A stretch of DNA of 64,000 nucleotides from an uncultured Verrucomicrobiae bacterium (GCA_963702845.1 OY969763.1:5440001-5504000), one strand, 5' to 3'; counted from the first letter of the stretch, positions 52,878 to 62,541 are shown. Numbers and translations are program-made. Notes: generated by a model not told the origin, from the letters alone.

Positions 52878-53234
52878 ATGACAATCTTAACGGACGTTTC
52901 ATCGGCGCTGCTGCGACGGGCGGTTCAATTGAAGGAGCAAATCGAGGGACTGGAGAAAGAGTTGAATAACATTCTCGGTCAAACCAGCCCTAAGCGCAGC
53001 ATGGCGATGACGCGAAGCCGCCCGGGTATCAGTCCGGCTGGACGCGCGCGGATTGTCGCCGCACAAAAACGCCGCTGGGCGATGCATCGGGCCCAGGCCA
53101 AAGCCGCAACCCGATCCAGCAGCAGCGCGCGCATAGCAACAAAAGCACCGAAAGGTGGCATCCCCCCCCAACTACGCGCCAAATTGGCCGCCCAGGCAAA
53201 AGCTCGTTGGGCCAAAGTTAAGTCGATGGGCTGA
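52878..53234 (+). CDS. Small basic protein, possibly nucleoid-associated
   Basis: N-terminal coiled coil plus two R/K-rich repeats (GRARIVAAQKRRWA and LRAKLAAQAKARWA). Confidence 0.7.
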   Translation: MTILTDVSSALLRRAVQLKEQIEGLEKELNNILGQTSPKRSMAMTRSRPGISPAGRARIVAAQKRRWAMHRAQAKAATRSSSSARIATKAPKGGIPPQLRAKLAAQAKARWAKVKSMG

Positions 53235-53564: not shown

Positions 53565-53799
53565 GGTGGAGATGATAAGAGTTATGTTAAATGACGGAAT
53601 TCAAAAAAGAGTTTTTAAATGGATTAGCGCGCCTTCAGACAGCCTGGAACATTGATGTCAATTAGTCCACGACAGAGCCGGGTGCGGTAACACTGAATTA
53701 AAAAACGATTTCCCTTGGATTACCGGCACTTCAGACAATGAGCGCCCCGTTGTGTCAAGTATTACACGACAGAGCTTTTACGGTTTTCCCTGAAAACAG

Positions 53800-53818
53800 A
53801 ACCGGCGGAACCCCGATT
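53800..53818. promoter_or_regulatory. Palindromic site upstream of GH25 copy 1 (also at 56016-56034, 57135-57153, 58189-58207, 59242-59260)
   Basis: Consensus AATCGG-N7-C(C/T)GATT followed by GT in five of the six upstream regions. Confidence 0.6.
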
Positions 53819-53896
53819 GTTGTTTTTGTCAAATAGTTCACTGTGGCGTTGTCCCATGAAAACCCACGACGAGTGGCCAAGAACCTTTGTGCCGCC

Positions 53897-53959
53897 ACGA
53901 TGTCTTGTACCGTTTGCAGGCCGGTGCTCGAGATCGTCTCCATAACAAAAGCAGCCTGC
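53897..53959 (+). ncRNA. Candidate cis-regulatory pseudoknot, GH25 copy 1 leader (type B)
   Basis: Stem ACGA/TCGT, TCTTG/CGAGA, GTACCG/CGGTGC; loop GCAGGC pairs with downstream GCCTGC. Confidence 0.55.
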
Positions 53960-53985
53960 CGACAAAAAGCAAAAAACAAAAAGCA

Positions 53986-54745
53986 ATGAAAACGATCATT
54001 AAAACCTCGTTAGGGTTGGTTGCGGGATTGGCGCTGTCGTTTACCGGCATGCAAGCCAAAGCTAACAACACGACCCACAGTCTCCTCGGCATTGATGTCT
54101 CCAGCTATCAAGGTTTCGTCACATGGGCAGCGTCCATGGTGACGGCGTAGCGTTCGCATTCGCCCGCGCCACTGAAGGAACCGCCAGCAACGACTCGGAT
54201 TTCTCCGGCAACATGAGCCGCGGCAAAAGCGCTGGTGTGAAATGGGCGCTTATCACTTCGCCTATCCAGCCGAAGGGTGCCCCAGCGTGCAGGCCAATCA
54301 CTTCTGGTCTATCGCCGGCGGCAAAATCACCGCTGACGGCAAATCAGTCATGCCGATGGTGGATTGCGAAGAATTCACTGGTGTTGGCTGCTCCGAAGGC
54401 ACCTACACCACCTGGTACAATGATTGGGCGACAGACCTCAAGACTCATTCTTCTGGCCTGCGTCCTGTCATCTATGTCAGCGCCTGCAATGCGTCTCACT
54501 TGACCACCGGCATCGCGGACTTGGGTGCATGGATTGCCGACTACAATGGCGGCAACCTGTATACCGGCAACCCATGGACCACCTGCTGTGGTGACTGCCG
54601 CTGGGGTTCCACCTCCTGCAACAACAACACCTGGACCTACTGGCAGGTCAGCTCCACTGGAGCGATCAGCGGTATCTCCGGCAACGTCGACCTCGATGCC
54701 TACAATGGCACCTTGGCCCAGTTGACCTCCTGGCAAGGTGTCTAA
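53986..54745 (+). CDS. Secreted GH25 muramidase, copy 1 (two 1-nt frameshifts near 54126 and 54241, likely errors)
   Basis: Signal peptide, GIDVSSYQG, RATEG, GAYHF, DCE, WQVSSTG, VDLD. Confidence 0.85.
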
Positions 54746-54760
54746 TCTAGTTTGAAGCAA

Positions 54761-54790
54761 GCCCGCGCGAGGCCAAAACCTCGCGCGGGT
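54761..54790 (+). terminator. Terminator-like hairpin after GH25 copy 1
   Basis: GCCCGCGCGAGG-CCAAAA-CCTCGCGCGGGT; weak T-tract. Confidence 0.7.
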
Positions 54791-54922
54791 CTCACATTGT
54801 CGAACCCATAAGTCGTCACAATCAACAAAAAGCAAAAAGCGCCTGAACCCAACAGGCATTTAAGCTGTTCGTTTGAAATTTTTTCAGTAGCGAAACTAAG
54901 TGCGTTAGTGATCTCTGAGTTT

Positions 54923-55008
54923 GAGTCCAGAGCGCGTGCTTTGGCGGCCTTGCAGGAGGACGCTTAAGTCCGTGAACCAAACTAAAAAACAACCTGCAAT
55001 GACGGAAA
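54923..55008 (+). ncRNA. Candidate pseudoknot, GH25 copy 2 leader (type A)
   Basis: GAGTCCAGAG, 18-bp imperfect stem, loop TGCAGG pairing with CCTGCA, then ATGACGGAAA. Confidence 0.6.
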
Positions 55009-55020
55009 GATAACAATAAA

Positions 55021-55785
55021 ATGAAACGCAGTACTCTAGTTACATACGCACTTGGCATTGTTGCCTCCGCAGCCCTTCTCGGTGCTACGGAAGTTCGCGC
55101 TAACAACACGACCCACAGCCTTCTCGGCATCGACGTCTCCAGCTATCAAGGTTTCATCACCTGGAGCAGCGTCAAAGGTGACGGCGTTGAGTTCGCATTC
55201 GCCCGCGCCACTGAAGGAACCGCCAGCAACGACTCGGATTTCTCCGGAAACATGACCCGCGGCAAAAGCGCTGGTGTGAAGATGGGCGCTTATCACTTCG
55301 CCTATCCAGCCGAAGGGTGCCCCAGCGTGCAGGCCAATCACTTCTGGTCTATCGCCGGCGGCAAAATCACCGCTGACGGCAAATCAGTCATGCCGATGGT
55401 GGATTGCGAAGAATTCACTGGTGTTGGCTGCTCCGAAGGCACCTACACCACCTGGTACAATGATTGGGCAACAGACCTCAAGACTCATTCTTCTGGCCTG
55501 CGTCCTGTCATCTATGTCAGCGCCTGCAATGCGTCTCACTTGACCACCGGCATCGCGGACTTGGGTGCATGGATTGCCGACTACAATGGCGGCAACCTGT
55601 ATACCGGCAACCCATGGACCACCTGCTGTGGTGACTGCCGCTGGGGTTCCACCTCCTGCAACAACAACACCTGGACCTACTGGCAGGTCAGCTCCACTGG
55701 AGCGATCAGCGGTATCTCCGGCAACGTCGACCTCGATGCCTACAATGGCACCTTGGCTGACTTGACGTCCTGGCAGGGTGTGTAA
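55021..55785 (+). CDS. Secreted GH25 muramidase, copy 2
   Basis: Same motifs, intact. Confidence 0.92.
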   Translation: MKRSTLVTYALGIVASAALLGATEVRANNTTHSLLGIDVSSYQGFITWSSVKGDGVEFAFARATEGTASNDSDFSGNMTRGKSAGVKMGAYHFAYPAEGCPSVQANHFWSIAGGKITADGKSVMPMVDCEEFTGVGCSEGTYTTWYNDWATDLKTHSSGLRPVIYVSACNASHLTTGIADLGAWIADYNGGNLYTGNPWTTCCGDCRWGSTSCNNNTWTYWQVSSTGAISGISGNVDLDAYNGTLADLTSWQGV

Positions 55786-55810
55786 TCCTGACCTGACTGT
55801 TTGTTAATTC

Positions 55811-55843
55811 AACCCGCGCGGATGAAAGTCCGCGCGGGTTTTT
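55811..55843 (+). terminator. Rho-independent terminator
   Basis: AACCCGCGCGGA...TCCGCGCGGGTTTTT. Confidence 0.85.
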
Positions 55844-56152
55844 ACATTCCTATCAGATTTTCGTCGACAGCCCATGTCAACAGAACCGCTACAAATCACG
55901 TTCTTTCTCACGCTCAATGAGCGTGATGTTCTTTCTCGAAAGCAGTATCAGGTTTCACCGCGAATTATTGTCAATTTAAGTTCGACACACCAATTACGCT
56001 TTTTGCTGAGTAGCGAATCCGCATAGACCTGATTGTTCCTCGGAACGGAAAAGTCCATTGTCTTGCCCGTTACCCGAGCGATAAAAAAGCACTGAACCCA
56101 CCAGCGCTCCTCCAGCGGTCCATTCGCGTGGATCTCAGTCTGATTTGAATTT

Positions 56153-56235
56153 GAGTCCAGAGTGCGTGTTCTGTACGGCGCGCAGGAAGACGTTACAGAA
56201 CACGATAAAACAAAAAAATCCTGCAATGACGGAAA
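56153..56235 (+). ncRNA. Candidate pseudoknot, GH25 copy 3 leader (type A)
   Basis: Stem CGTGTTCTGTA/TACAGAACACG; loop GCAGGA pairs with TCCTGC. Confidence 0.6.
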
Positions 56236-56242
56236 CCACTAA

Positions 56243-57004
56243 ATGAAACGTAATCTAATACAAAAGATCCTCGGCATCTGTGCGGCTGCAACACTGCTCG
56301 GAACCACCGGCGCTCGCGCCAATAACACCACCCACAGCCTCCTCGGCGTGGACGTTTCGAGCTATCAAGGCTCAATCAACTGGAGCAGTGTTTACGGTGA
56401 CGGCGTCCGCTTCGCGTCTGCCAAAGCCACCGAGAGCACCGGTTACACCGATGCCTATTTCGCTGGCAACATGAACAACGGCAAAGCCGCAGGCTTGCAG
56501 ATGTGTGCATACCACTTCGCCCATCCTGAATCCACCTGTCCAAGTGCACAAGTGAACCACTTCTGGTCTGTCGCCGGCAGCAAGATCACCGCAGACGGCA
56601 AATCGGTTTATCCGATGGTCGACTGCGAAGTCTTCAGCGGCGTCACCTGCAGTGAAGGCACCTACACCACGTGGTACAACGACTACTCCACTGACCTGAA
56701 GGCCAAGACGGCCAACTTCCTGCACCCGGTCATCTACGTCAGCGCCTGCGCTGCCAGCCACCTGAGCACCGCGATCACGCTCTCGGCCTGGATCGCCGAC
56801 TACAACGGCGAGAACCTCTACACCGGTAATCCTTGGACCACCTGCTGCGGCGACGACCGTTGGGGTTCCACCTCCTGCAACGCCAACACCTGGACCTACT
56901 GGCAAGTCAGCAGCACCGGCGCTATCAGCGGCATCTCCGGCAACGTTGACCTCGATGCCTACAACGGCACCTTGGCTGACTTGATCTCGTGGCAAGGAGT
57001 GTAA
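56243..57004 (+). CDS. Secreted GH25 muramidase, copy 3
   Basis: GVDVSSYQG, KATES, DCE, VDLD. Confidence 0.92.
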   Translation: MKRNLIQKILGICAAATLLGTTGARANNTTHSLLGVDVSSYQGSINWSSVYGDGVRFASAKATESTGYTDAYFAGNMNNGKAAGLQMCAYHFAHPESTCPSAQVNHFWSVAGSKITADGKSVYPMVDCEVFSGVTCSEGTYTTWYNDYSTDLKAKTANFLHPVIYVSACAASHLSTAITLSAWIADYNGENLYTGNPWTTCCGDDRWGSTSCNANTWTYWQVSSTGAISGISGNVDLDAYNGTLADLISWQGV

Positions 57005-57028
57005 TCTGATCTGAGTTTGTTATACTGC

Positions 57029-57059
57029 ACCCGCGCGGACGCAAGTTCGCGCGGGTTTT
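57029..57059 (+). terminator. Rho-independent terminator
   Basis: ACCCGCGCGGAC-GCAA-GTTCGCGCGGGTTTT. Confidence 0.85.
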
Positions 57060-57204
57060 CTCTTTTCGGAAGGCCGGCTGAACACCATGTCAAATTTAAC
57101 ACGACACAGCACCTCAGCCTTTTGCTCACCGCCGAACCGGCTGATGCCTGATTGTTTGATTGTACCACAAAGTCCAAAGTGGGCTGTTCCCAAAACCTAA
57201 CGCC

Positions 57205-57282
57205 GGCAAACGATTGTCGTTCGCCCGAAGTTTGTCTCTGGTTGCAGACTGGACAAAGTTCGCCTACTAAAAGCACCTGCAA
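57205..57282 (+). ncRNA. Candidate pseudoknot with a 5' accessory hairpin, GH25 copy 4 leader (type B)
   Basis: GGCAAACGA/TCGTTCGCC hairpin; CGAAGTTTGT/ACAAAGTTCG stem; TTGCAG pairs with CTGCAA. Confidence 0.55.
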
Positions 57283-57302
57283 AAAAGCAAAAAACAAAAA
57301 GC

Positions 57303-58052
57303 ATGAAAACCACTAAATTACTCCTTGCTGCGCTCGCGTTGTCCCTCGGGGCTACTCTGGCGCAAGCTAACAATACGACTCACAGTCTCCTCGGAATCGA
57401 CGTGTCGCACTATCAAGGCGGCATCACCTGGAGCAGTGTTTACGGCGACGGCGTCCGTTATACCTTTGCCAAAGCTGTCGAAGGCACCGGTTATACCGAC
57501 CCTAACTTCAGCTCTTACGCCAGCGGTGCTAAAGCAGCTGGTTTGAAGTTTGGCGCCTATGACTTCTGCCATCCAGAATCCGGCTGCCCAAGTGCCGAAG
57601 TCAACCACTTCTGGTCGGTTGCTGGTGGCAAGATCACCGCTGACGGCAAGTCCCTCTATCCGATGCTCGACTTGGAAGTGTTCTCCGGTGTTGCTTGCGG
57701 TGAAGGCACCTACACCGGATGGTCCAACGACTGGTCAACCGATGTCAAAGCGAAGACCGGCAACTTCCTGCATCCGGTTATCTATATCAGCGCATGCAAT
57801 TGCTCCCACCTGAGCACTGCTATCACGCTGTCTGCCTGGATTGCGGACTACAACGGCCAGAACCTCTACACCGGTAACCCGTGGAGCACCTGCTGCAGCT
57901 ACGACCGTTGGGGCTCCACCGCCTGCAATGCCAACACATGGACCTACTGGCAGGTCAGCTCGACCGGTCGCATCAGCGGCATCTCCGGCAACGTTGACCT
58001 CGATGCCTACAACGGCACCTTGGCTGAATTAACGTCCTGGCAAGGTGTTTAG
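57303..58052 (+). CDS. Secreted GH25 muramidase, copy 4
   Basis: GIDVSHYQG, KAVEG, DLE, VDLD. Confidence 0.92.
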   Translation: MKTTKLLLAALALSLGATLAQANNTTHSLLGIDVSHYQGGITWSSVYGDGVRYTFAKAVEGTGYTDPNFSSYASGAKAAGLKFGAYDFCHPESGCPSAEVNHFWSVAGGKITADGKSLYPMLDLEVFSGVACGEGTYTGWSNDWSTDVKAKTGNFLHPVIYISACNCSHLSTAITLSAWIADYNGQNLYTGNPWSTCCSYDRWGSTACNANTWTYWQVSSTGRISGISGNVDLDAYNGTLAELTSWQGV

Positions 58053-58082
58053 TCTGGCAACCTGAAGCTGTTCCTATACTGC

Positions 58083-58115
58083 AACCCGCGCGGGTGAAAA
58101 CTCGCGCGGGTTTTT
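58083..58115 (+). terminator. Rho-independent terminator
   Basis: AACCCGCGCGGGT-GAAA-ACTCGCGCGGGTTTTT. Confidence 0.85.
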
Positions 58116-58260
58116 ACGTATTCAAAACGTGCTTATCGCACTGTCGATAACAACGTGACAGGGCAGTTCAGCTTATTACTGACTGCTGAATCGACTGACG
58201 CCTGATTGTATATTTTACAGCAAGGCTCAGAGTCGCACTGTTCCAAAAAAAACCAACGTC

Positions 58261-58340
58261 GGCAAACTATTGTCGTTTGCCCGAAGTTTGTCTCTGGTTG
58301 CAGACTGGACAAATTTCGCCTCACTAAAAAGTAACTGCAA
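58261..58340 (+). ncRNA. Candidate pseudoknot with a 5' accessory hairpin, GH25 copy 5 leader (type B)
   Basis: GGCAAAC/GTTTGCC hairpin; CGAAGTTTGT/ACAAATTTCG stem; TTGCAG pairs with CTGCAA. Confidence 0.55.
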
Positions 58341-58358
58341 TTAAGCAAAAAACAGAAA

Positions 58359-59123
58359 ATGAAACGCACTACTCTAGTCCAAAATGCCCTTGGCATCGTC
58401 GTCGTCGCCGCCCTCACCTTGGGCGCGACCTCCCTCCGAGCTAACAATACCACGCACAGCCTCTTGGGCGTGGACGTCTCAAGCTATCAAGGCTCCATCA
58501 CCTGGAGCAGCGTCTACGGTGATGGCGTCCGTTTCGCGTCTGCCAAAGCCACCGAAAGCACCGGTTATACCGATGCTTATTTCTCCGGCAACATGAACAA
58601 CGGCAAAGCCGCCGGTTTGCAAATGTGCGCGTATCACTTCGCCCATCCCGAATCCACCTGCCCAAGCGCGCAAGTGAATCACTTCTGGGCAGTCGCCGGT
58701 AGTAAAATCACTGCGGACGGCAAGTCGATCTACCCGATGGTTGATTGCGAAGTCTTCAGCGGCGTGACCTGCGGTGAAGGCACATACAATACCTGGTACA
58801 ATGACTATGCTGCCGATCTCAAAGGCAAAACCTCATTGTTCCTGCACCCAGTCCTCTACACCAGCGCGTGCAGTGCCTGCCATCTGAGCAGCGCCACCAC
58901 GCTCTCGGCTTGGATCGCGGACTACAACGGCCAGAACCTCTACACTGGTAACCCTTGGACGACGTGCTGCTCCTGTAACGTCTGGGGCGGCGGTTGCAAT
59001 GCCAACACCTGGACCTACTGGCAGGTTAGCAGCACCGGTGCCATCAGCGGCATCTCCGGTAACGTCGACCTCGATGCCTATAACGGCACCTTGGCTGAAT
59101 TGGTGTCCTGGCAGGGTGTCTAA
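58359..59123 (+). CDS. Secreted GH25 muramidase, copy 5
   Basis: GVDVSSYQG, KATES, DCE, VDLD; 10 Cys. Confidence 0.92.
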   Translation: MKRTTLVQNALGIVVVAALTLGATSLRANNTTHSLLGVDVSSYQGSITWSSVYGDGVRFASAKATESTGYTDAYFSGNMNNGKAAGLQMCAYHFAHPESTCPSAQVNHFWAVAGSKITADGKSIYPMVDCEVFSGVTCGEGTYNTWYNDYAADLKGKTSLFLHPVLYTSACSACHLSSATTLSAWIADYNGQNLYTGNPWTTCCSCNVWGGGCNANTWTYWQVSSTGAISGISGNVDLDAYNGTLAELVSWQGV

Positions 59124-59153
59124 TCCTTCCCTGACTACATTTCAAAACTGCAC

Positions 59154-59183
59154 CCCGCGCGAAGCAACACTCGCGCGGGTTTT
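59154..59183 (+). terminator. Rho-independent terminator
   Basis: CCCGCGCGA...TCGCGCGGGTTTT. Confidence 0.8.
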
Positions 59184-59303
59184 CATTTTTGCACTGTCAA
59201 GCGAACCATTACTTGTATGTCAATAATACATCTACACGCCAAATCGGGGTTTGCCTGATTGTGGTTTTGTGGGAAATGTAGAAACTCACCTCGTTCCCAA
59301 CAC

Positions 59304-59390
59304 GAGTCCAGAGCGCGTGTTTCATTTTGCTTGCAGGAGCGATTTGAAAATCCGTGAAGTAAATCAGTAAATCTCCTGCATTGACCGAAA
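59304..59390 (+). ncRNA. Candidate pseudoknot, GH25 copy 6 leader (type A)
   Basis: GAGTCCAGAG; stem CGCG/CGTG, TTTCA/TGAAA, TTGCT/AGCGA; loop TGCAGG pairs with CCTGCA; then TTGACCGAAA. Confidence 0.6.
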
Positions 59391-59398
59391 GTAGTATA

Positions 59399-60166
59399 AT
59401 GAAACGCAGTAATCTGATCAAAAACGTACTTGGACTAGTAGCTGGCGTCGCCCTCCTGGGGGCTTCGGAAGCACGCGCAAACAATACCACCCACAGCCTT
59501 CTCGGCATTGACGTCTCCAGTTTTCAAGGTTTCGTCACCTGGAGCAGCGTCAATGGTGATGGCGTTGCCTTCGCGTTCGCTCGCGCTACTGAAGGAACCG
59601 CGAGCAATGATTCCGATTTCTCCGGAAACATGACCCGAGGTAAAAGCGCAGGCGTGAAAATGGGCGCTTATCACTTCGCCTATCCAGCCGAAGGCTGCCC
59701 CTCAGTCCAAGCCAGTCACTTCTGGACTCAAGCCGGTAGCAAAATCACGGCTGATGGCAAGTCGCTCATGCCGATGGTTGACTGTGAAGAGTTCACTGGT
59801 ATCGGCTGCTCTGAAGGCACCTACACCACCTGGTACAATGATTGGGCCGCAGACCTCAAGACCCACACGACCTTGACCCTGCGTCCAGTTATTTATGTCA
59901 GCGCCTGCAATGCCTCGTTTTTGACTACCGGCATCTCGGGTTTGGGCGCTTGGATCGCCGATTACAATGGCCAAAACCTCTACACCGGCAACCCATGGAG
60001 CACCTGCTGCGGCGACGACCGTTGGGGTTCCACCTCCTGCAATGCCAACACCTGGACCTACTGGCAGGTTAGCAGCACGGGTGCCATCAGCGGCATCTCC
60101 GGTAACGTCGATCTCGATGCCTATAACGGCACCTTGGCTGATTTGACCTCCTGGCAAGGTGTGTAA
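59399..60166 (+). CDS. Secreted GH25 muramidase, copy 6
   Basis: GIDVSSFQG, RATEG, DCE, VDLD. Confidence 0.92.
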   Translation: MKRSNLIKNVLGLVAGVALLGASEARANNTTHSLLGIDVSSFQGFVTWSSVNGDGVAFAFARATEGTASNDSDFSGNMTRGKSAGVKMGAYHFAYPAEGCPSVQASHFWTQAGSKITADGKSLMPMVDCEEFTGIGCSEGTYTTWYNDWAADLKTHTTLTLRPVIYVSACNASFLTTGISGLGAWIADYNGQNLYTGNPWSTCCGDDRWGSTSCNANTWTYWQVSSTGAISGISGNVDLDAYNGTLADLTSWQGV

Positions 60167-60223
60167 GAAACAGTTTGAAGCGTCTGTTCTAATATAAAGC
60201 GTTAGGACAAGCGTCGGATTCAT

Positions 60224-60259
60224 AACCCGCGCGAGTTTTAAAATTCGCGCGGGTTTTTT
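60224..60259 (+). terminator. Rho-independent terminator
   Basis: AACCCGCGCGAGTTT...AAATTCGCGCGGGTTTTTT. Confidence 0.85.
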
Positions 60260-60340
60260 GTGAAAATATTATCTAAAAATTTGAGAAAAATATCGCCTTA
60301 AGTGGTCTATCCGATAAACTAAAAACACATCACCGGCCCC

Positions 60341-61311
60341 ATGAAAAGTGTCCGCTATTAGCAATTTTCGTCCTGAATTCAGTTTTGATTTCGGCCTTGC
60401 TGATCCGCTTGGACCCGAATGCGCCGGTTAAACCGCCGCCTACGCCACCGAAACCTGATCGCGAGAAGACGAGTTATGCGATCGGCATGAATCTCGGCCT
60501 GCAGCGCAAACAGGCCAAGTCCGACGCCGATATCGAAGCCTTCGCCAAAGGGCTGAAGGAAACTTTTCGAAAATAAACCGACCGAGATTCCTTTCACCGA
60601 CACGATGCAGGCCATCAATGCCATGCGCACACAGCGGCACCAACGCCACCGCGCAGGAGAAGCGAATGTTTGCTTACGCCATGGGCATGCGCTGGGGCAA
60701 TCAACTTGAAAGGAAAATGCTCCCGATTGTGATACCGCTGTTGTTGTTCGGCCATAAAAGATGTCGCTGACGGCAAGCCGACTAAGATCAAGGAAGCCGA
60801 AATGCAACCTTTGCTCGAACAGGGCCGGGAGTGGTCTCTTTATATCAAAGGCGCAAAAAATCGTGAGGCAGGCGCGGCTTTTCTGGCTGCGAATGTCCAA
60901 GCAACCCGGCGTGCACAATCTCCCCGATGGCTTGCAATATCGAGTCATCAAAGAAGGCACCGGCCGGGCGGCCAGCACCCTTGGATGAACACGAAGTCCT
61001 CTTTATCAGATACAAAGGAACATTCATTGATGGTCGTGAATTTGATCATCATAACCATTTCCCGAAAAATCTCCTCGGTGGCTGGCCTGCCTGGCTTGAA
61101 GCCCTCAAACGCATGAAAGTTGGCGACAAATGGCAGGTTTATTCTCCGCCCGAGTATTCATTTGGCCGCGACGGCGACCCGTCTCGTCAATGTCGGTCCG
61201 GATACCACAGTCGTTTGGGATTTGGAAATTCGCGAAATCGTTGGTGACGATGATCCACGCTTGGGCACCGGCCGGCTCGGTCACGGTATTGCCGGACGCG
61301 ACAATCCGTAA
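60341..61311 (+). CDS. FKBP-type peptidyl-prolyl isomerase (FkpA/Mip-like, apparently duplicated N-domain), heavily frameshifted
   Basis: Fragments EKTSYAIGMNLG, LPDGLQYRVIKEGTG, YKGTFIDGREFD, EALKRMKVGDKWQVYSPPEY. Confidence 0.75.
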
Positions 61312-61397
61312 ATCGAGGTGAAAGAGTGAAGTGAAGCTGTATCCGTAAATCTACCAATTGTCGCTCTCCAATCTCATTCTGACTCACTCCTGCAGCC

Positions 61398-62393
61398 ATG
61401 ATCAAAGTTGAAAATCTCACCAAAGCGTTCGGCGCGAAAGTCGCCGTTAACAACGTCTCTTTTACCGTCGAGCGTGGTGAAGTGCTGGGATTTCTTGGCC
61501 CTAACGGCGCCGGCAAATCCACCACCATGCGCATGATCACCGGCTTTATCCCGCCGACTGATGGAAAAGTTTCCGTCGGTGGACACGACGTGGTTGAAAA
61601 TCCGATCGCCGCAAAGAAGCTCATCGGTTATTTGCCTGAAGCCGCGCCCGGTTTATGTCGACATGACGGTGAAAAGTTTTCTTACTTTCTGCGCCGAACT
61701 CAGCGGCATGCGCGGCGATGCGTTCAAGAGAGCTGTCAATCGCGCCGTCGAACTCTGCTTCCTCGAACCGGTCCTTTATCAAAGTGTCGACACACTGTCC
61801 AAAGGCTATCGCCATCGCACTTGTCTCGCGCAGTCCATCGTTCATGACCCGCCGGTCCTCGTCATGGACGAACCGACCGACGGACTTGACCCGAATCAAA
61901 AGCACGAAATCCGCACTCTCATTCGCGGATGGGTGAAAACAAAGCGATCATTTTCTCCACTCACATTCTGGAAGAAGTCGAAGCCGTTTGTTCGCGCGCC
62001 ATCATCATCGATCGCGGCCAGATTGTTGCCTCCGGAACCCCTGAAGAATTGAAGCGTCGCTCCGAACTCGGTGGTGCGGTCCGTATTTCCGTTCGCGGTA
62101 TCACCGCCCCGCAATTCGCCGACCGCCTCTCGGCCATGCCTCAAGTGCGCAAAGTCGCTGTCCTCGCCGGGAAAAACGGTGACGCCACCGTCCGCGTCTA
62201 TCCGCAGGACGGAATCGGCAAAGATCTCAACGGCGATTTTGTTCGCGGCTTGCTTGAAGCTTCGAGCTGCTGGCAAGTCCTCGATGTTCGCACCGAAGAA
62301 GGCCGTCTGGACGAAGTCTTCCGCAACCTCACGTGGTCCGACACGGTAAGAAAACCGAGCCGGCCGCGGCCGTCGCTGCTTAATAGAAACTGA
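61398..62393 (+). CDS. ABC-2 ATP-binding protein, GldA-like (two frameshifts)
   Basis: GPNGAGKS, LSKGYRHR, MDEPTDGLDPNQ, STHILEEV. Confidence 0.85.
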
Positions 62394-62541
62394 ATCCGCT
62401 AAGAAGACCGCCCCATTTCTGCAAAACTAAGCATGATGCATAAATCGACATCGCGACAAATCGTAGCGCAGGCGAGGCCGACGTCGGCTTTCTAACCTGC
62501 GTCGCGTCGTTGCGCCTTCAGTCGTCGAATTTCTGCGGATG

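Follow-up and report, generated by a model that had tools for sequence, protein, structure and literature searches.

We analysed a stretch of 64,000 nucleotides (the window) from the genome of an uncultured Verrucomicrobiae bacterium of the Limisphaerales (GCA_963702845.1 OY969763.1:5440001-5504000; G000 in our genome set), in which six units of the GH25 lysozyme family stand in tandem at 53986-60166, spaced ~1.04-1.2 kb apart and, like all array features given below, on the plus strand. The original prediction, made from the sequence alone, had described six tandem secreted GH25 cassettes here, and all six scored over the curated PF01183 cut-off of 27 bits. Copies 2 (55021..55785, 254 aa), 3 (56243..57004, 253 aa), 4 (57303..58052, 249 aa), 5 (58359..59123, 254 aa) and 6 (59399..60166, 255 aa) are intact open reading frames (ORFs) of 249-255 aa with 69-88% identity to copy 2 and PF01183 scores of 99-114 bits. 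As foreseen, each of the five has the SWQGV end and one PF01183 domain with no extra, cell-wall-binding domain. Intact DVS, DxE and VDLD motifs had been claimed for all six copies; they are present in copies 2-6, but the frame of copy 1 (53986..54745) is broken by two 1-nt deletions, near 54125 and 54240 when compared with copies 2 and 6, and its in-frame 3' part matches the family at 51.6 bits.

Both deletions sit within short one-base runs, and the FKBP-type isomerase and ABC ATPase genes that flank the array (60330-62400) contain several frame-changing indels relative to the intact genes of a relative, G001, although some gaps may be artefacts of the pairwise alignment, made at ~75% identity. 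For these two reasons the copy 1 deletions are probably assembly errors. Such errors are not general, since frameshifts affected 1 in 55 matched genes genome-wide. Three DNA runs from one sample yielded only short contig pieces, none of which crossed the array or the copy 1 breaks; a weak indication came from one read contig of depth 2, in which bases were missing at two FKBP indel sites. The last ~500 nt of copy 1 are ~99% identical to copy 2 (dS 0.05), a near-identity that suggests one recent conversion or a consensus error. Because the other 14 array pairs have dS values of 0.67-1.35 and all 15 pairs have dN/dS of 0.08-0.25, the array is, by these substitution rates, old and maintained by long-term purifying selection.

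The leader peptides of copies 2-6, judged by eye, have a basic start, a hydrophobic core and an A-x-A end, and the structural model of copy 3 showed low pLDDT across most of residues 1-28. By eye, cleavage would fall after the A-x-A, so the mature proteins would begin NNTT and not, as first proposed, ANNTT. Mature copies 2-6 contain 8, 8, 8, 10 and 7 cysteines, in agreement with the predicted maximum of 10, and seven cysteine columns are kept in 83-116 of 116 homologue rows. The mature domains are acidic (pI 4.5-5.0) and net negative at pH 5.5-7. A GspD-type secretin is split in the G000 assembly and scored over cut-off in 4/4 other genomes.

The best solved match by sequence was cellosyl of Streptomyces coelicolor (1JFX; E 2e-34), which was also the best fold match to the copy 3 model (mean pLDDT 89.9; E 8e-20, TM 0.70/0.81, 35% identity). 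Fungal secreted GH25s came next, and the top 10 fold matches were all GH25 muramidases or lysins with the modified beta/alpha barrel. The DxE pair and the flanking N- and C-terminal Asp, four acidic motif residues in all, are kept in 115-116 of 116 homologues, while the array copies have WQV where cellosyl has WQY. Differences between copies lie partly in the loops after strands 1-4 and therefore allow some variation in specificity; the C-terminal strands are nearly invariant. By every sequence and fold test the array products are GH25 muramidases of the Chalaropsis type, with activity predicted. The close homologues that carry names come from Limisphaerales metagenome-assembled genomes (MAGs), a more distant cluster includes one member that is assigned to another phylum, and one locus came from a Verrucomicrobiia MAG.

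The best phage matches were 33% identical (112 records), and among the 80 IMG/VR matches listed identity reached at most 37% and covered part of the protein. Those flanking genes that were tested are cellular (glycosyltransferase, FKBP, ABC-2 transporter), and no holin or phage gene was seen among them. On these grounds we rejected a prophage lysis cassette, and the absence of phage context noted at the outset was upheld, no close phage relative having been found.

A structured leader had been proposed for each unit, and the structure proved more specific than that. In all six leaders a 13-16-bp hairpin has a loop, with core GCAG, that forms 6-8 bp with a strand lying 14-18 nt further downstream, which makes a conserved H-type pseudoknot. 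The linker is A/C-rich, and the knot ends 18-26 nt before the AUG in these six, within an overall range of 18-32 nt, leaving the A-rich start region free. The pseudoknots lie at 53890..53973 (unit 1, where loop GCAGGC pairs with downstream GCCTGC), 54926..55011 (unit 2), 56156..56238 (unit 3), 57218..57294 (unit 4, with a further hairpin from 57205 just 5'), 58274..58352 (unit 5) and 59307..59393 (unit 6), and ten related leaders fit the same pattern. With a loose descriptor that accepted any core, we recovered 6/6 array copies and 2/10 of the other GH25 starts tested (one mis-set). Among 900 genes with non-coding leaders drawn at random, 65 also fitted, including 3 GH25 genes.

We searched whole genomes with an RNA model built from 17 leaders. 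Two matches in G277, a genome from another family, and one in G177 each lay directly before a single-domain GH25 gene, as did all strong matches; these two were the only genomes with matches among 10 of that family. Five weak matches elsewhere had E values of 0.008-0.03. The 8 matches in G000 were training sequences, and no other match was seen there among the 150 of 1422 candidates scored. Held-out leaders contributed a double change from A-U to G-C and a change from A-U to G-U in the core. In 16 sequences, 5 of them outside the model, 89.7% of cells were paired, against 34-53% in slid controls, and 3 pairs had changes on both sides (7/500 shuffles); for 17 sequences pairing was 76.2% (0/500 shuffles). 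These shuffles ignore kinship, and the training copies were picked by core motif. Two Rfam scans of the leaders, with E limits of 5 and 2, gave no match. The folding program used for plain z-scores does not model pseudoknots, and its values for the six leaders were therefore weak (-0.5 to -3.1). Since only the knot helix has invariant columns and the start region is left free, we consider the leader likelier to be a stabiliser or a protein-binding site than a riboswitch. An RNase J block was not supported, no RNase J scoring over cut-off in 3/3 genomes.

Upstream of the leaders, units 1, 3, 4, 5 and 6 have three palindromes of ~19 bp with a period of ~23.5 bp: box A (TGTC-N11-GACA), a middle box and box B (AAYC-N11-GATT). 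The phased boxes lie at 55968..56036 (unit 3), 57087..57155 (unit 4), 58141..58209 (unit 5) and 59194..59262 (unit 6), while in unit 1 (53655..53820) an extra box A at 53655-53676 precedes the three, an arrangement conserved in G001. The last box overlaps a -35 element starting with TTG, and a weak -10-like hexamer follows 16-17 nt on, as judged by eye; a sigma-70 scan returned no forward promoter. This layout resembles that of an activator-dependent promoter. No box promoter was present upstream of copy 2 and its leader.

Downstream of all six copies is a CCCGCGCG hairpin. A terminator had been claimed for every unit, but the terminator scan flagged as intrinsic only those of copies 2 (55811..55840), 3 (57029..57056), 5 (59154..59179) and 6 (60224..60255); the copy 4 hairpin (58083..58112) has a U-run by eye and was not flagged, and that of copy 1 (54762..54790) has no U-tract, was not flagged and likely allows read-through into copy 2. 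Because copy 2 has no boxes and the preceding hairpin no U-tract, copy 2 is probably co-transcribed with copy 1. Separate transcription, as originally described, thus fits the five units preceded by boxes but not copy 2.

GH25 genes are numerous well beyond the array. We counted 21 loci in G000 and 17, 10 and 11 matches in its close relatives G001, G002 and G003; in the remaining 27 of the 31 genomes the count was 0 or 1. Ten of the G000 copies are single-domain and the remainder longer; modules of the Ig, LamG, DUF346 or FG-GAP type were present in six of nine longer ones scanned, and the other three have tails with no Pfam match. Across the order, in a tally that scored at most 8 candidates per genome and included the unpublished G322, a GH25 match was found in 68 of 401 genomes and in none of the other 333, so the gene is dispensable. 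Five GH25-rich genomes came from three other families (19, 9, 7, 6 and 5 matches), and a 400-genome sample of the class gave no further match at E 1e-60.

The richest of these five, G277, has three recent tandem copies (dS 0.10-0.20) ahead of the same FKBP-ABC genes. In a tree of 31 rows, from which one split, one long-branch and partial rows were left out, the G277 copies (100/99) and the G000 array (100/98) fell into separate clades. Independent amplification in a second family at one locus points, from these phylogenetic data, to selection for dose. A metagenome contig (L052) also holds three tandem copies. Copy 6 has a close homologue in G001 ahead of the same FKBP gene, G003 has a GH25 end there, and FKBP and ABC genes come after the GH25 locus in G001, G003 and G277. 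Coding sequence 1 is gone from G001, where promoter 1, leader 1 and the left flank remain. By these comparisons the array locus undergoes birth and death. A comparison of synteny and copy number, as had been recommended, thus showed flanks conserved together with GH25 genes in G001, but an array that is not unique.

Several single loci deserve description. On the minus strand of contig L017 (G001:C379, 900-1120) an orphan unit retains the boxes and leader pseudoknot 1, but what follows in the place of copy 1 is an ORF of just 9 codons; the unit stands directly ahead of the copy 2 homologue, placing two leaders in tandem. Elsewhere in G001 (L016, G001:C176, 1941-2693, minus strand) an array-type GH25 gene has the full promoter and leader, and in its product the first conserved Asp is replaced by Gly. 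The gene for a 275-aa membrane-anchored protein was duplicated along with the GH25 genes of G277 (L157, G277:C96). Within 20 kb at G000:C1:47647-66178 (L149, L167), the ATP synthase genes have three fused GH25 genes and a split S13-repeat-Ig gene on their flanks. To the left of the array itself (52878-53234) is a small basic ORF of 118 aa with repeated ARWA-type motifs and no Pfam match over cut-off; it is possibly nucleoid-associated, and it is conserved in this flanking position in G001.

With matrices trained on GH25 promoters only, paired boxes spaced at 24 or 47 nt were found in 6 Mb at the array and at two other sites, while nine control spacings gave 1 match in total. One site precedes the gene for a secreted S13 DD-peptidase that also contains repeat and Ig modules, and its boxes are kept in congeners, at two G001 loci and in degenerate form in G002. 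The other precedes a gene for a 1012-aa secreted protein, which had no Pfam match and look-alikes only in Verrucomicrobiota; next come Rhs-repeat ORFs, whose end is weakly GIY-YIG-like, and then an Imm26-like gene (G000:C1:1136687-1145352; L168, L197); the Rhs-repeat protein is in three pieces. The Rhs-locus box pair scored as well as that of the S13 gene and had the same spacing. An extra compact S13 was present in 8/9 GH25-expanded genomes and 2/27 others, counts in which kin are not independent; the canonical S13 is separately present.

The box scan identified no activator gene. A sensor kinase and a NarL-type response regulator, assigned by eye, lie ~3.6 kb upstream of a single-domain GH25 gene in G003 (L049, G003:C115, 32-3101) and are a possible lead for the activator. 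A separate repeated element with core ATATCAAAAT.ACCGCGACACC occurs 46-89 nt upstream of more than 10 small genes, at many G000 sites that include ~9000 in the window, and is possibly a cassette or repeat family. The idea of an amplified exoenzyme battery under dedicated regulation gained from the purifying selection on its copies, from the second amplification, from the motif common to the S13 and Rhs loci and from the failure to find a close phage relative. The array itself, however, makes up only a portion of a genome-wide expansion common to the relatives.

On balance we lean towards the view that the GH25 array encodes an exported kit that would break the peptidoglycan of other bacteria, to kill them and feed. 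A cooperative dimeric activator would bind the three boxes, the last overlapping the weak -35, and switch on the GH25 units together with the secreted S13 DD-peptidase and the Rhs toxin-immunity locus. The pseudoknot would stabilise the mRNA or bind a factor and would not hide the start. The products would be exported by Sec, fold with disulfides in the periplasm and leave by type II secretion; the muramidases would then cut glycan and the S13 enzyme cross-links. Released MurNAc would enter a kinase-MurQ pathway, with uptake through AnmK and a kinase-MurQ fusion. Tandem copies would raise the dose, and differences in active-site loops might widen the prey range. AnmK and the fusion are both present in G000, the latter a MurQ-type etherase joined to a BadF-type sugar kinase (G000:C1:3658004-3659845; L200) with frames of similar length in most relatives.

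Several observations weigh against a killing kit. MurQ was found in 25/31 genomes and therefore does not discriminate. The lytic arsenal is narrow: NlpC/P60, GH18 and the VipB protein of the type VI secretion system (T6SS) each gave 0 matches in G000, and we rejected a broad arsenal. The box motif was not found ahead of several other S13 orthologues, and no conserved copy of the Rhs-locus boxes was found outside G000, leaving one promoter in one genome. Nor was the motif found in G003 or G277, so the box regulation looks genus-level, while the leader RNA spans families. The acidic charge and the lack of a binding domain may suit debris digestion better than killing, and the proposed kit does not account for protection of the producer's wall. 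Among other wall-hydrolase families, M23 gave 4 matches over cut-off in G000, three of them clustered in genes that do not look lysin-like by eye, and Amidase_2 was mildly raised, with 3-5 matches in G000-G003 compared with 0-2 in 26/27 others and 4 in G028. A 1691-aa secreted Amidase_2 protein with six Ig domains and no boxes (G000:C1:5784370-5789445; L162) is a candidate wall hydrolase.

On another reading the exported enzymes only digest the peptidoglycan of dead cells for carbon and nitrogen, with no killing and the Rhs match incidental, an explanation that we consider a serious though somewhat unlikely one. The enzymes are acidic and catalytic-only, co-expansion is limited to those cutting glycan and cross-links, AnmK and MurQ are on hand, and neither a T6SS match nor a conserved Rhs box copy was found. 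Scavenging alone accounts poorly for the boxes of the Rhs locus, where an Imm26-like gene lies nearby and the box pair equals the S13 pair in score and spacing, and secreted GH25 enzymes of other organisms have antibacterial roles according to a partial text of PMC7954357. It is improbable, in our judgement, that the clade has instead shifted to another N-acetylated glycan, an exopolysaccharide or the oomycete wall. Identity to cellosyl is ~35%, there are extra Cys-rich loops, WQV replaces WQY, and a fungal GH25 antagonises an oomycete (PMC7870139, partial text); the DxE and flanking Asp are nevertheless intact, and the genes share regulation and occurrence with a peptidoglycan peptidase.

Sec signal peptides alone reach only the periplasm, and the box motif joins the array to a DD-peptidase, so that the enzymes could be periplasmic autolysins for division, vesicle release or a developmental stage. 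We give such remodelling of the own wall little credence: the 333 genomes of the order with no GH25 match, the separate canonical S13, the absence of LysM or SPOR-type domains in favour of Ig, LamG, DUF346 and FG-GAP in the fused forms, and ten single-domain copies in one genome, above any plausible housekeeping need, all argue otherwise. Least probable of all, and very unlikely, is an assembly artefact or prophage lysis cassette. The near-identity of copies 1 and 2 over ~500 nt and the clustering of indels in this part of the assembly speak for an artefact, but dS lies at 0.67-1.35 in the remaining 14 pairs, G001 retains each flank together with GH25 genes, and tandem copies recur in L052 and G277; a prophage is opposed by the distant phage and IMG/VR matches and by the cellular flanks described above.

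If the exported killing kit is real, the lineage is an overlooked bacteria-eater. A lineage with ~20 genes for cutting bacterial walls would be a candidate consumer of live bacteria or bacterial necromass, and the genes offer both a direct marker and an assay of that role. A bolder proposal, which we put forward tentatively and regard as doubtful, is that several Limisphaerales lineages are unrecognised bacteriolytic predators in which Cys-rich muramidases were repeatedly amplified, these form one regulon with S13 and Rhs, and the pseudoknot leader, as a new class of leader RNA, senses a signal such as a cell-wall fragment. A paper on the transfer of antibacterial GH25 genes mentions Verrucomicrobia as a reference taxon only (PMC4241558), another predatory soil lineage is described with no mention of GH25 in the portion available (PMC13755416), and a 2025 review, in line with the view of soil Verrucomicrobiota as plant-polymer degraders, lists cellulose, pectin and starch in its abstract, the words lysozyme, predat- and antagon- being absent from its available text (PMC12714770). 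GH25 muramidases are in industrial use (PMC7954357, in part). In the literature covered, with subscription journals and supplements outside its scope, we found no account of the expansion, the repeated amplification, the shared promoter or the RNA.

Among known systems the array enzymes most resemble cellosyl (muramidase M1, 1JFX), which has a single catalytic domain with DxE, is the best match in sequence and fold, and shares one aligned Cys. Cellosyl has one disulfide; the array enzymes, in contrast, have 7-10 Cys, a diderm host, six tandem and 21 genome-wide copies, and their own leader RNA and boxes. The fungal secreted GH25s (6ZMV, 6ZM8, 2X8R) are likewise single-domain exported enzymes that act on foreign peptidoglycan, export and target being predicted for the array, and they use DxE catalysis with substrate assistance, as an available part of PMC7954357 describes. 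They differ in their 24-29% identity to the array enzymes, and here the host is a bacterium with its own wall to protect and strong amplification. Lysobacter, too, is a diderm that secretes wall-lytic enzymes, for which type II secretion is discussed as a route (PMC10380237, seen in excerpt), whereas the lineage described here is known from its genome only. Proteases predominate among the Lysobacter enzymes, whereas the amplification here concerns a single glycosidase family, and searches for NlpC/P60 and GH18 gave no match. By analogy the ecology may nonetheless resemble Lysobacter bacteriolysis. Phage GH25 endolysins belong to the same Pfam family, but identity is at most 33%, and the array proteins have predicted signal peptides and occupy the same chromosomal position in two families.

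The c-di-GMP-II, SAM-II and preQ1 riboswitches likewise lie upstream of a start codon and have a hairpin loop that reaches over an A-rich linker to pair with a strand downstream. The array leader, by contrast, showed no terminator and no alternative that would hide the start. It also differs from these pseudoknotted riboswitches in having no Rfam match, in conserving letters only in the knot helix and in its association with GH25 genes only; it is a gene-specific structured RNA that can be tested in vitro. What appears to be new here is this GH25-leader pseudoknot outside Rfam, together with a phased palindromic promoter motif that is found also before the S13 and Rhs loci.

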